Source: Escherichia coli
GTDB lineage: Bacteria > Pseudomonadota > Gammaproteobacteria > Enterobacterales > Enterobacteriaceae
Assembly: GCF_002854065.1 (NCBI RefSeq)
Contig: NZ_CP024147.1
Reading direction: 5' to 3' (one strand)
DNA length: 64,000 nt
The notes beneath the pieces are model-generated. The model had not been told where the DNA came from, searched no databases, and saw only the letters and a program-made list of their open reading frames with translations. This document shows, one piece after another, positions 22,770-25,572 of this stretch. The first letter of the stretch is position 1. The number at the start of each line of letters is the position of its first letter. The position numbers and the translations under genes were made by a program.

Positions 22770-23615
22770 ATGTCCACGACATGGTTTGTAGGAGCCGACT
22801 GGCTCGCCGAACATATTGATGACCCGGAAATTCAGATTATCGATGCCCGCATGGCGTCGCCTGGACAGGAAGATCGTAACGTTGCTCAGGAGTATCTGAA
22901 TGGACATATTCCCGGCGCAGTGTTTTTTGATATCGAAGCGCTTTCTGATCACACTTCCCTGCTTCCGCACATGCTGCCGCGCCCGGAAACGTTCGCCGTG
23001 GCGATGCGTGAATTAGGCGTTAACCAGGATAAGCACCTGATTGTCTATGACGAAGGTAATCTTTTCTCAGCCCCACGAGCATGGTGGATGCTGCGCACCT
23101 TTGGTGTAGAGAAAGTGTCGATTCTGGGGGGTGGACTTGCAGGCTGGCAGCGCGATGATCTGTTGTTAGAAGAAGGTGCAGTAGAGCTGCCGGAAGGAGA
23201 GTTTAACGCCGCGTTTAATCCTGAAGCAGTGGTGAAAGTAACCGATGTGTTATTGGCAAGCCATGAAAATACGGCGCAAATTATTGATGCCCGCCCGGCT
23301 GCACGTTTTAACGCAGAAGTTGATGAACCTCGCCCAGGTTTACGTCGCGGACATATTCCCGGTGCATTGAACGTTCCGTGGACGGAACTGGTGCGCGAAG
23401 GCGAACTAAAAACGACCGATGAACTGGATGCGATATTTTTTGGTCGCGGCGTCAGCTATGACAAACCGATTATCGTCAGCTGCGGCTCTGGTGTAACAGC
23501 AGCCGTGGTTTTGTTGGCACTCGCGACGCTGGATGTGCCAAACGTGAAACTGTACGACGGCGCATGGAGTGAATGGGGCGCGCGGGCAGATTTACCGGTT
23601 GAGCCATTGAAATAA
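22770..23615 (+). CDS. sseA: 3-mercaptopyruvate sulfurtransferase SseA (rhodanese)
   Basis: ORF track frame 22611-23615; conserved start MSTTWFVGADW at ATG 22770 (281 aa); catalytic-cysteine loop SCGSGVTAA. Confidence 0.93.
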   Translation: MSTTWFVGADWLAEHIDDPEIQIIDARMASPGQEDRNVAQEYLNGHIPGAVFFDIEALSDHTSLLPHMLPRPETFAVAMRELGVNQDKHLIVYDEGNLFSAPRAWWMLRTFGVEKVSILGGGLAGWQRDDLLLEEGAVELPEGEFNAAFNPEAVVKVTDVLLASHENTAQIIDARPAARFNAEVDEPRPGLRRGHIPGALNVPWTELVREGELKTTDELDAIFFGRGVSYDKPIIVSCGSGVTAAVVLLALATLDVPNVKLYDGAWSEWGARADLPVEPLK

Positions 23616-23629
23616 GCTTTTTACAGGCA

Positions 23630-23731
23630 ATAAAAAACCGCCGAATTTGGCGGTTTTTTATTGCTGGTCTGGTTCGCGGCCTTTCCAGCAGGTTGACTTG
23701 TGTTGCCGGAGCAACGCAGGCACCCCACAGT
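23630..23731 (-). ncRNA. Candidate antisense sRNA of ryfA copy 1 (TimR/RyfB-like)
   Basis: Minus-strand sigma70-like promoter (-35 TTGACA at 23761-23766, 17-bp spacer, -10 GAGTAT at 23738-23743); predicted 5' end carries the reverse complement of caggcaccccacagtg (23717-23732), which recurs at 23879-23894 in the ryfA leader; 3' end at the bidirectional terminator. Ends approximate. Confidence 0.45.
23632..23660. terminator. Bidirectional rho-independent terminator (sseA on plus; candidate antisense sRNA on minus)
   Basis: aaaaaaccgccgaatttggcggtttttta: GC stem aaccgcc/ggcggtt flanked by an A run and a T run. Confidence 0.8.
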
Positions 23732-23865
23732 GTTGAAATACTCTCTTTTATGCCTGGCTGTGTCAAGATAATAAACAGAGTAATTATTCAAACATGAGAG
23801 TATTATTCTTAATGGCCCTTTTCGCCGTCTCGCAAACGGGCGCTGGCTTTAGGAAAGGATGTTCC

Positions 23866-23961
23866 ATGACCGTAAATACAGGCACCCCACAGTGCTTGCT
23901 ATCGCGGCAATATCGCCAGTGGTGCTGTCGTGATGCGGTCTTCGCATGGACCGCACAATGA
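23866..23961 (+). CDS. Leader ORF (31 codons) with strong SD, translationally coupled to the downstream toxin-like ORF
   Basis: AGGAAAGGA 6 nt upstream of ATG; MTVNTGTPQCLLSRQYRQWCCRDAVFAWTAQ; its TGA stop overlaps the ATG of the next ORF (caATGA). Codons 5-10 coincide with the 16-nt antisense target. Coding status is inferred. Confidence 0.4.
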   Translation: MTVNTGTPQCLLSRQYRQWCCRDAVFAWTAQ

Positions 23962-24083
23962 AGATACGGTGCTTCTGTATCGTACTTATTGTTTCTGGTG
24001 CGCTGTTAACCGAGGTAAATAATAACCTGAGTCTCTCCGGCAACAATTTACTGGTGGTTAACAACCTTCAGAACAGCAGGTAA
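23958..24083 (+). CDS. Small hydrophobic toxin-like protein (41 aa), TimP/RyfA-type candidate
   Basis: MKIRCFCIVLIVSGALLTEVNNNLSLSGNNLLVVNNLQNSR; no own SD, start overlaps leader stop; identical amino-acid sequence in copy 2 with a single synonymous difference, whereas flanking DNA differs at many positions. Confidence 0.5.
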   Translation: MKIRCFCIVLIVSGALLTEVNNNLSLSGNNLLVVNNLQNSR

Positions 24084-24113
24084 GCCCGAATGCCGCCCTT
24101 TGGGGCGGCATAT

Positions 24114-24197
24114 TTAGATTATCCGATTCTGTTTAAAGTCACGCAAAAAACCACCCCAGCGACGTTCATAGAATGGCGCAATATGTTCGATATTAAA
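24114..24197 (-). pseudogene. Detached duplicate of the sseB 3' end (last ~25 codons plus stop)
   Basis: Minus-strand translation gives ..IEHIAPFYERRWGGFLRDFKQNRII*, identical to the C-terminus of the intact sseB at 24796-24880; no upstream coding continuation. Confidence 0.65.
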
Positions 24198-24311
24198 ATG
24201 ACCTGGCTTATTAGTCCGAATTCAGACAAATATAAACAAATCCCGCTCAATATTAAAAATACTAACCGGTAAAAGATATTACTTAAACATGTAAATTCAC
24301 TTTCTTTAAGC

Positions 24312-24415
24312 AACAAAAAACCGCCAAAATCAGGCGGTTATTTGTTGCCGGTTTGGTTCGCGGCCTCTCCAGCAGATTGACTTGTGTTGCATGAGCAACG
24401 CAGGTGCTTCACAGC
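24312..24415 (-). ncRNA. Candidate antisense sRNA of ryfA copy 2 (TimR/RyfB-like)
   Basis: Minus-strand promoter -35 TTGACA (24445-24450), 17-bp spacer, -10 GAATAT (24422-24427); 5' region complementary to caggtgcttcacagc (24401-24415), matching the copy-2 leader site caggtgtttcacagc (24560-24574) with one G-U wobble; terminator hairpin at 24318-24345. Confidence 0.45.
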
Positions 24416-24546
24416 AGAGCAATATTCGCCAGCAACTCTCTTTTTGTCAAGCAAAAGAGAGTAATTATTGTTTATTTAGCGTATTATCGACACCGGCCCT
24501 TTCCGCCGTCTCGCAAACGGGCGCTGGCTTTAGGAAAGGATGTTCC

Positions 24547-24642
24547 GTGGCCGTAAATGCAGGTGTTTCACAGCGCTTGCTATCGCGGCAATATCGCCAG
24601 TGGTGCTGTCGTGATGCGGTCTTCGCATGGACCGCACAATGA
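24547..24642 (+). CDS. Leader ORF of copy 2 (GTG start), coupled to the toxin-like ORF
   Basis: Same SD AGGAAAGGA; GTG instead of ATG; five amino-acid differences in the first 10 codons, all inside the antisense target; stop overlaps the next ATG. Confidence 0.35.
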   Translation: MAVNAGVSQRLLSRQYRQWCCRDAVFAWTAQ

Positions 24643-24764
24643 AGATACGGTGCTTTTGTATCGTACTTATTGTTTCTGGTGCGCTGTTAACCGAGGTAAA
24701 TAATAACCTGAGTCTCTCCGGCAACAATTTACTGGTGGTTAACAACCTTCAGAACAGCAGGTAA
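24639..24764 (+). CDS. Small hydrophobic toxin-like protein (41 aa), copy 2
   Basis: Same protein as copy 1 (MKIRCFCIVLIVSGALL..), one synonymous change (TTC to TTT). Confidence 0.5.
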   Translation: MKIRCFCIVLIVSGALLTEVNNNLSLSGNNLLVVNNLQNSR

Positions 24765-24795
24765 GCCCGAATGCCGCCCTTTGGGGCGGCATATT

Positions 24796-25572
24796 TTAGA
24801 TTATCCGGTTCTGTTTAAAGTCACGCAAAAAACCACCCCAACGACGTTCATAGAATGGCGCAATATGTTCGGTAATAAAGTGGCTAATTCCTTTTTCCCC
24901 TTTTTTCACCTGACAAATATCGATTGGTTCATCGCCAGGTAATGTATCGGTCGCTACACTTCCCGCCGCCTGAATAATTTCTTCGATATCACCATCGGCT
25001 TCAATGCCAATAAGTAAATTAGGCTGTGCCTCTTCGTTCTCTTTAATTGAACATATAAAAGCACGCTTCACCGGCTTAATAGTTTTAAATAAGGTGGTGA
25101 GTGAATCAATCATTTGTGCTGGCGGCTCTGCGACTTCCGATAATATTAGCGATTCACCGCCTTCCAGTACTTCCTGGCTACTCAGCGGATTCCCTTCTTC
25201 ACCAATCAACAAACTGATTTCACGCGGCATAAATTCTTTACCGGTTGGCAGTTTGGCATTAAGGAAGAGCGTTTCGCCAAGGGTCATCTCAAACAATGTG
25301 CGAACGGGCATTACTACAAATGCCTGTTCGTCTTCAACCGCCTGTTGAAGTGCTTCTAACGAGGTAAAAAAAGGAATGACGCTGGTGCCGTCTTCTTTTT
25401 CCCAATGCTGTAAATCAAGCGCACTATCTTCAACCACAGCCTCGCCCTGCGCCGCCGTACCAGGCACCCAGACGGTGGATCCCAGTAGAGTACGGAAAAA
25501 GGCCGGGCGGTGCGCCGGTTCGGTTGCTGCTTTTTCCAGCAGGTCTTCAAGTTCGTTTTTTGTTTCGGACAT
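24796..25572 (-). CDS. sseB: Protein SseB (enhanced serine sensitivity)
   Basis: ORF track frame 24796-25581; conserved start MSETKNELEDLLEKAATEP at ATG 25570-25572 (258 aa). Confidence 0.9.
   Translation of the reverse strand: MSETKNELEDLLEKAATEPAHRPAFFRTLLGSTVWVPGTAAQGEAVVEDSALDLQHWEKEDGTSVIPFFTSLEALQQAVEDEQAFVVMPVRTLFEMTLGETLFLNAKLPTGKEFMPREISLLIGEEGNPLSSQEVLEGGESLILSEVAEPPAQMIDSLTTLFKTIKPVKRAFICSIKENEEAQPNLLIGIEADGDIEEIIQAAGSVATDTLPGDEPIDICQVKKGEKGISHFITEHIAPFYERRWGGFLRDFKQNRII

Follow-up and report, generated by a model that had tools for sequence, protein, structure and literature searches.

Tandem timPR toxin-antitoxin units in Escherichia coli: the 31-codon frame upstream of TimP as a likely by-product of a structured 5′UTR

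In Escherichia coli EC974, a 31-codon frame runs into a 41-codon hydrophobic ORF, and a second copy of the arrangement lies a short distance downstream. Does translation of the first frame control that of the second? A sequence-only reading of the window (the whole stretch of 64,000 nt analysed here, from contig NZ_CP024147.1) proposed that it does: the leader, initiated from a strong Shine-Dalgarno sequence (SD), would be translationally coupled to a membrane-toxin-like peptide, and an antisense RNA pairing at the leader start would silence both, as in mok/hok. The alternative examined here is that the region ahead of the 41-codon ORF acts as RNA and that the frame within it is incidental.

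The locus is the enterobacterial type I toxin-antitoxin system timPR (formerly ryfA/ryfB), present in two tandem copies. Sequence and RefSeq annotation together place both timPR units between sseA and sseB (Table 1). The ryfA covariance model of Rfam (RF00126, gathering score 80 bits) gives full-length matches at 23812-24116 (315.7 bits) and 24493-24797 (313.8 bits). In RefSeq, 23958-24083 and 24639-24764 carry the annotation "small toxic inner membrane protein TimP", and the NCBIfam profile toxic_TimP (NF040796, cut-off 45 bits) matches the 41-codon ORF with 77.7 bits over profile positions 1-39, starting from residue 1; named TimP homologs are also retrieved for the 41-aa product. The membrane-toxin-like peptide is therefore TimP itself. 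In Salmonella, ryfA encodes the inner-membrane toxin TimP from an ORF at +145..+261, which is the sole conserved ORF found by RNAcode on the Rfam alignment, and the divergent sRNA TimR blocks timP translation through an 18-nt pairing with the 5′UTR (Andresen 2020, PMC7667032). Comparison with the published protein, a check that the sequence-only reading had called for, shows that the 41-codon ORF corresponds to TimP, at +145, and that the leader does not. timP is found in 5,425 of 5,426 complete E. coli genomes, and its ORF is intact in 24 of 24 copies from six genera, with start and stop kept, indels in-frame only and homolog lengths of 38, 39 or 41 aa. The toxin, the antitoxin RNA, the tandem siblings, the variable region and the translation mechanism have all been published already.

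Table 1. Features of the two timPR units, in coordinates of the window
Feature	Coordinates	Strand	Remarks
TimR1 (RyfB1-type) sRNA	23631-23730	-	divergent from timP1; inferred ends; terminator shared with sseA
timP1 mRNA (ryfA1-type, variable region CACCC)	23814-24116	+	RF00126; 144-nt structured 5′UTR, TimP ORF, intrinsic terminator
SL1	23818-23857	+	lower stem +5..+10 with +39..+44, holds SD-like GGAAAG
Pseudoknot site 1, CGCUGGC	23841-23847	+	in SL1
AGGAAAGGA, the "strong SD" of the sequence-only reading	23851-23859	+	mostly 3′ strand of SL1 lower stem
Leader frame, 31 codons, MTVNTGTPQCLLSRQYRQWCCRDAVFAWTAQ	23866-23961	+	ATG...TGA; judged incidental, not a conserved gene
Site 2, GACCGU (+55..+60)	23868-23873	+	pairs with GCGGUC 23935-23940
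TimR1 binding site (predicted)	23875-23894	+	5′ strand/loop of SL2, +62..+81; variable region CACCC 23883-23887
SL2	23879-23898	+	5′ strand and loop are the TimR1 target
SL3	23901-23934	+	loop/upper stem GCCAGUG 23915-23921 is pseudoknot site 3
SL4	23935-23954	+	sequesters TimP SD core GGA; 5′ strand 23935-23940 is site 4
timP1 CDS, 41 aa, MKIRCFCIVLIVSGALLTEVNNNLSLSGNNLLVVNNLQNSR	23958-24083	+	RefSeq WP_001491247.1, exact coordinates; NF040796
timP1 terminator hairpin	24090-24111	+	from the sequence
sseB 3′ remnant (pseudogene)	24114-24200	-	edge of the tandem duplication unit; RefSeq annotation of EC974
TimR2 (RyfB2-type) sRNA	24313-24414	-	aligns with TimR1; terminator 24339-24319
timP2 mRNA (ryfA2-type, variable region TGTTT)	24495-24797	+	RF00126 313.8 bits; RefSeq CDS
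Copy 2 leader frame	24547-24642	+	GTG start; copy 2 ORF 24639-24764
timP2 CDS	24639-24764	+	RefSeq

The frame upstream of TimP exists as described: the window sequence contains AGGAAAGGA at 23851-23859 and an ATG at 23866, and after 31 codons the TGA (23959-23961) overlaps the TimP ATG (23958-23960). However, the overlap is not remarkable. Because TimP begins Met-Lys (ATGAA, invariant in 20/20 aligned homologs, those from outside E. coli being among the matches listed), a TGA at this position is forced, and 34% of mononucleotide shuffles of leader codons 2-31 are free of stops; overlap and open frame together amount to no more than chance. The leader peptide matches no NCBIfam family and is missing from a collection of 15 billion proteins. 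Variable sites in the frame are distributed 16/13/17 over codon positions 1/2/3, with no excess at the third position. Pooled pN/pS (Nei-Gojobori) spans 0.57-0.75 in the leader frame and 0.53-1.19 in TimP, with 0.74 in a control frame; these values are uninformative, due to the fast evolution of the C-terminal half of TimP and the RNA-structure constraint on both regions, and are given no weight.

The natural variation of the codon at +53 bears directly on coupling. Exact-match oligonucleotide counts over the 5,426 complete E. coli genomes give GCG in 2,806 (52%), GTG in 1,646 and ATG in 230 + 32 + 321. That GCG takes the place of the start codon in about half of E. coli argues, at the level of populations, for a dispensable leader frame; strain FDAARGOS_944 carries GCG at +53, yet its TimP protein is identical to the one encoded here (WP_001491247.1). 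Since half of the species lacks the start codon, coupling is not the basic design of the timP system. Among the matches listed, 18 homologous copies have ATG (8), GTG (2) or ACG/GCG (8) at this position, and only those from Escherichia, Citrobacter and Superficieibacter keep the frame free of stops as far as the TimP AUG. In the other genera among these matches it meets a stop at codon 9 (Pantoea and two Rahnella), codon 15 (Erwinia and Y. pekkanenii), codon 21 (two Rahnella) or codon 26 (three Yersinia). In Salmonella, for which +48..+79 was rebuilt from published oligonucleotides, the upstream frame reaches a UAG at codon 9 (+77..79), in agreement with the published text (PMC11228461). The mechanistic experiments were all performed on this Salmonella allele, with an upstream frame of 8 codons vs. 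31 here.

Two features of the hok/mok design are an upstream start codon that is conserved and an upstream ORF that stays open in relatives. The first is lacking both across the E. coli genomes and in the 18 homologous copies among the matches listed, and the second is lost through the stops outside Escherichia, Citrobacter and Superficieibacter. In Salmonella, changing AUG +53 to AAG leaves timP translation unaffected, and its authors ruled out coupling (Eleftheraki and Holmqvist, 2024, PMC11228461). In view of this null mutant, the GCG alleles and the stops in other genera, the proposal of mok/hok-style coupling via the leader is not supported. The 31-codon frame is judged incidental, an allele-specific by-product of a structured leader.

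The structure of that leader is known from Salmonella. Translation of timP requires a pseudoknot between SL1 and SL3, while the SD is trapped in SL4 (PMC11228461); the M7/M7′ and M2/M2′ mutants demonstrate that the pairings themselves are the requirement (PMC11228461), and sequestration of the SD in SL4 is backed by probing and by ΔSL4 and "open SD" mutants (PMC11228461, PMC13000454). The mRNA undergoes no processing, and truncation from its 5′ end abolishes translation (PMC11228461). The SD is freed when site 2 (C57, C58, G59) base-pairs to the 5′ strand of SL4 (Eleftheraki 2026, PMC13000454), a pairing supported by the compensatory mutants S2*/S4*; an alternative pairing of site 1 with site 2 yields an inactive, locked RNA (PMC13000454).

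These elements can be placed in the window one by one. With +1 set at 23814 by homology to the start of the Salmonella in vitro transcript GGCCCTTTCCGCCGTC, the published landmarks map base for base: AUG53 to 23866, C57-G59 to 23870-23872, G102/C103 (M2′) to 23915/23916, G125:C138 to 23938:23951 and AUG145 to 23958, and position G131 also maps exactly. Both copies are able to form every pair of the published four-stem architecture. Conservation was assessed in an alignment of 20 distinct 5′UTRs comprising Escherichia alleles, Citrobacter, Superficieibacter, Yersinia, Pantoea, Erwinia and Rahnella, the loci from other genera having been retrieved with the SL4 pattern GCGGTCNNNGCANNGACCGCAC (18 enterobacterial loci among the matches listed, no Salmonella). 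Comparative pair counts were used in place of single-sequence MFE folding, which mixes alternative conformations and is not significant alone for this 5′UTR (z = -1.4). SL1-SL4 are 96.2% paired across the 20 homologs, vs. 38-46% after a shift of the 3′ partners by 1-3 columns. The lower stem of SL1 is paired in 96.7% of cells and includes one compensatory pair. The SL1-SL3 pseudoknot (23841-23847 with 23915-23921) is 100% paired in the 20 homologs, 3 of its 7 pairs being compensatory, and the site 2-4 helix is likewise 100% paired; the A/G difference between the two copies at +56 preserves this helix, as A-U or G-U. All seven pairs of SL4 are invariant, in part by construction, given that the homologs were found with the SL4 pattern. 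In 18/18 homologs among the matches listed, the +53 codon and the TimP AUG are 92 nt apart.

The same structure bears on the two SD-like elements. The element AGGAAAGG upstream of the leader is conserved in 20/20 homologs (those other than E. coli among the matches listed), both in those with and in those lacking a start codon after it, because, as the 3′ strand of stem SL1, it is the pairing partner of CCUUUC (+5..+10). The statement that the 41-codon ORF has no SD of its own proved overstated: a GGA core lies 7 nt upstream of its AUG (23948-23950), hidden in SL4. Experiments in Salmonella identify the homologous AAGGA as the SD that timP requires (PMC11228461, PMC13000454), and the E. coli core, UGGA, is weaker. 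In terms of predicted anti-SD duplexes, the leader ribosome binding site (RBS) is the better of the two (-6.2 vs. -3.0 kcal/mol for that of TimP), and it is also predicted to be the more accessible (unpaired probability ~0.6 vs. 0.01 for the TimP GGA core).

These predictions speak for a restricted form of coupling, in which alleles with ATG or GTG at +53 would translate the leader, unwinding SL2-SL4, terminate at the UGA and re-initiate at the TimP AUG, so that a second TimR-sensitive route would operate beside the switch. The ATGA overlap, the weak SD core (GGA) of E. coli TimP, an open frame in all copies examined from Escherichia, Citrobacter and Superficieibacter (among the matches listed) and a TimR duplex that starts at leader codon 4-5, near the region covered by an initiating 30S subunit, are all in keeping with it. 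However, coupling cannot be required where 52% of E. coli genomes combine GCG at +53 with an intact timP, and the Salmonella start-codon mutant is without effect (PMC11228461). In addition, the ATGA is imposed by Met-Lys, an open frame is to be expected in about a third of shuffles, and the SL1 stem explains the SD-like element. Moreover, the variable sites lack a third-position excess, the leader peptide has never been annotated, and ribosomes translating the 5′UTR would destroy the very pseudoknot that is essential for initiation (PMC11228461). We regard allele-specific coupling of this kind as very unlikely, and hardly expect that, in ATG (possibly GTG) alleles, a termination-reinitiation route to TimP is superimposed on the switch. 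If it were true, basal toxin levels or sensitivity to TimR would differ between the ATG, GTG and GCG alleles.

The predicted antisense pairing follows the published arrangement in both copies. The position of the TimR1 5′ end is derived from homology to the TimR transcript of Salmonella, CTACGGTGTGCCTGCGTTGC; the RNA has a terminator hairpin and a fold z-score of -3.9. Assignments of TimR1 to AgrB (30.7 bits), sraL (32.2) or OhsC (26.1) were rejected, all three scores falling below the Rfam gathering scores, and in the printed alignment it is mainly the terminator hairpin that accounts for the sraL match. The antisense site that the sequence-only reading had predicted on leader codons 5-10, shortly 3′ of the leader start, is borne out by a 16-nt exact complement to TimR1 at 23879-23894 (+66..+81). 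The full predicted duplex covers +62..+81 (codons 4-10) and is therefore located 3′ of the leader SD and start codon, at the edge of the range in which 30S binding would be blocked. In the second copy, the complementarity of TimR2 to timP2 comprises 18 pairs, including 2 G-U.

Divergence between the two copies is concentrated in this region. Over 303 nt, the timP1 and timP2 mRNAs show 12 differences, of which 9 fall within +53..+80; the others are +9, +303 and a synonymous change in TimP (Phe6, TTC to TTT), which is, as had been claimed, the only difference between the two 41-aa ORFs. Within the leader frame the nine differences turn the start codon from ATG (23866) to GTG (24547) and produce five amino-acid changes (T2A, T5A, T7V, P8S and C10R) and one synonymous change. 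The earlier count of five replacements is correct; their placement entirely within the pairing site is not, as T2A (+56) is outside the antisense site and inside the published site 2. The suggestion that the leader is selected at the nucleotide level holds, since toxin mRNA and antitoxin RNA co-evolve: the copy differences coincide with the published variable region, and each copy is matched by its own TimR. In Shigella dysenteriae, where tandem ryfA1/ryfA2 are accompanied by divergent ryfB1/ryfB2 (Fris 2017, PMC5333039), the 5-nt variable region is CACCC, TGTTT, CGCGT or CCCCC (PMC5333039), and RyfB1 lowers the level of RyfA1 but not of RyfA2 (PMC5333039). In E. coli the target classes are CACCC, TGTTT and CGCGT, each normally adjoining the matching TimR. 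Predicted duplexes over local windows are stronger for the cognate combinations (TimR1-timP1 -38.5, TimR2-timP2 -39.8 kcal/mol) than for the crossed ones (TimR2-timP1 -20.7, TimR1-timP2 -26.4 kcal/mol). G-U pairing would let TimR1 act in part on timP2, and TimR2 would have no action on timP1. With CACCC and TGTTT targets, each with its own TimR, the window contains two largely separate toxin-antitoxin pairs.

The published structural switch accounts for the conserved elements of the region, including the supposed SD, site 2 and the divergent patch, and we consider it highly probable that timPR works here through this switch, with the leader frame as a by-product. The identity of all parts, the conservation and covariation of the pairings, the complementarity within cognate pairs and the non-conservation of the leader frame are observed in E. 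coli and its relatives; experiments in Salmonella are the source for the mechanism of the switch, for the toxicity and for the null upstream start mutant, and to these the E. coli copies would presumably conform. Each copy would produce an mRNA of ~300 nt encoding the 41-aa inner-membrane toxin from +145, preceded by a 144-nt 5′UTR that would serve as an RNA switch rather than as a coding leader. SL4 would lock the TimP SD. For TimP to be translated, the SL1-SL3 pseudoknot would have to form and site 2 (+55..+60) would, in addition, have to pair with the 5′ strand of SL4 and so free the SD, while the alternative pairing of sites 1 and 2 would hold the RNA inactive. TimR would use its 5′ end to pair with +62..+81, the 5′ strand and loop of SL2, so destabilizing the pseudoknot and blocking TimP initiation. 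Ribosomes may scan the frame at +53 in ATG and GTG alleles, but it would be dispensable both for TimP expression and for control by TimR.

A different view of the transcript, derived from work in Shigella and in pathogenic E. coli, treats RyfA mainly as a trans-acting RNA with roles in stress resistance, ompC expression, fimbriae and virulence; the reading frames would then be of minor importance, and TimR/RyfB would act as sponge or antagonist. ryfA alleles with a disrupted TimP ORF still complemented the phenotypes of a ΔryfA uropathogenic E. coli (PMC8205139), and a study of avian pathogenic E. coli describes toxicity of the E. coli peptide as still to be determined (PMC13188913). In S. dysenteriae, the peptide was not detected and overproduction of RyfA1 did not slow growth (PMC5333039). 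Against this view stand a TimP ORF that is intact in every one of the 24 copies from six genera, the presence of timP in all but one of the E. coli genomes, a match to the curated TimP family well above its cut-off and the conservation of all the elements of the translation switch. Furthermore, Salmonella TimP is toxic when expressed from the E. coli chromosome (PMC13000454), and a dual function of the RNA would be compatible with the structural switch. A mainly trans-acting role at the expense of the toxin appears very unlikely.

The main yield of the analysis is that each element in the window can be assigned cleanly; as a discovery it carries little weight. For those who study the timP switch, the natural ATG/GTG/GCG polymorphism, together with the 31-codon extension present only in Escherichia and close relatives, offers a cheap experiment.

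Among known systems, timP/TimR of Salmonella is the closest. The two share the sseA-sseB locus, RF00126, an ORF at +145, an upstream AUG at +53, the SL1-SL4 architecture with its pseudoknot, the site 2-4 and site 1-2 pairings and a divergent antisense RNA acting on SL2. They differ in the length of TimP (38 aa there, 41 aa here) and in the upstream frame, which stops at +77..79 in Salmonella whereas here it runs 31 codons to the TimP AUG. Unlike in Salmonella, the locus here is a tandem duplication with two target specificities. The arrangement in S. dysenteriae is also tandem, with CACCC in copy 1 and TGTTT in copy 2, and its divergent ryfB RNAs of ~100 nt have 16-18 nt of complementarity over the variable region (PMC5333039). 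That study treated the RNAs as non-coding regulators, without TimP or a translation switch (PMC5333039), and the host differs, EC974 being a uropathogenic E. coli (urinary isolate). The hok/mok/sok system of plasmid R1, on which the coupling proposal was modeled, resembles timPR in its small membrane toxin, buried SD, overlapping upstream frame and antisense RNA acting upstream. However, hok depends on mok translation, with the mok RBS as the site blocked by Sok, and on 3′ processing of its mRNA; in timP, Salmonella can dispense with the upstream start, which most E. coli lack, the antisense RNA has its binding site within SL2 and not at an RBS, and the mRNA is unprocessed. The tisB/istR-1 system of E. 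coli also combines a sequestered toxin RBS with the need for an upstream element containing a pseudoknot, and with an antisense RNA acting far upstream of the RBS. In contrast to tisB, where a standby site has to be exposed by 5′ processing, timP is translated as a primary transcript by a purely structural switch.

In the E. coli collection, 5,425 complete genomes contain 5,601 matches to the 3' two-thirds of timP, at most three in any one genome, so a second or third timP copy, as in EC974, is confined to about 3% of these genomes. In E. coli generally, the first codon of the 31-codon leader frame (+53 of the timP mRNA) follows the target class among the sampled loci: ATG goes with CACCC, GCG with CGCGT (2,806 genomes), and either GTG or, as in Nissle 1917, ATG with TGTTT. 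The A or G at +56 alters the strength of the site 1-2 pairing, the published inactive state of the RNA switch, as C34 pairs with G56 and not with A56. Because of this change in pairing, some alleles may switch on more easily than others.

The leader/target regions of the two copies differ at nine positions. Because all nine differences are transitions, TimR1 is still predicted to pair with timP2 in the same register, through a G-U-rich duplex of 25 pairs (-26.4 kcal/mol), while the predicted pairing of TimR2 with timP1 contains A-C mismatches. On these modeled duplexes any cross-talk should be one-directional. In Shigella dysenteriae, RyfA2 (a timP RNA) is reported not to be lowered by RyfB1 (a TimR RNA; Fris 2017, PMC5333039).

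The locus of K-12 and J6 is a mosaic when compared with the two units of the window. Its timP has a TGTTT target, yet the neighboring divergent TimR is CGCGT-class, with a duplex of -30.5 kcal/mol. Farther upstream, adjoining sseA, lies the TGTTT-class TimR that fits this target (duplex -37.6 kcal/mol); after it comes just 16 nt of a deleted first timP copy. Since the matching TimR is distal and a CGCGT-class TimR adjoins timP, the cognate antitoxin of K-12 timP appears to be the distal "orphan" TimR.

An in-frame ATG 12 nt 5' of the TimP start would give a 45-aa form (MDRT-MKIR...), the version used in a UPEC study (PMC8205139) and also carried by some Shigella GenBank entries. Within SL4 (the 5'UTR stem hiding the TimP SD), this ATG occupies positions of the loop and the 3' stem; it lacks an SD, and Salmonella, Rahnella and Erwinia have AAG in its place. 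In NCBIfam, the TimP profile begins at the 41-aa start, not at the upstream ATG.

Features and compared regions (window coordinates unless another locus is named)
Feature	Coordinates	Strand	Remark
Partial IS128 match	23600-23673		On sseA/TimR1 terminator
TimR1 region scored against AgrB	23629-23710	-	
Codon +53	23866; copy 2, 24547		
Leader/target regions	23883-23893; 24564-24574		
45-aa extension	23946-23957; copy 2, 24627-24638		
NCBIfam TimP profile start	23958		
IS128 (RF00125) match	24147-24357	+	Rfam, 227 bits; spans spacer between two timP copies
K-12 mosaic locus	L002 1300-2113		Compared with 23629-24797
Pantoea latae TimR-position RNA	L098 1439-1519	+	

E. coli TimR itself matches no Rfam family at threshold. 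The 3' end of the longer IS128 match overlaps the opposite-strand TimR2 terminator; because the IS128 matches overlap the terminators of both TimR1 and TimR2, the "IS128 RNA" family appears to be modeled in part on the strand opposite TimR. In Pantoea latae, the RNA at the TimR position scores 40.7 bits against Rfam AgrB (RF02891; gathering score 40), the RNA antitoxin to dinQ, compared with 30.7 bits for E. coli TimR1. The AgrB match may be driven by the terminator; a distant kinship of the TimR and AgrB antitoxin RNAs is possible.
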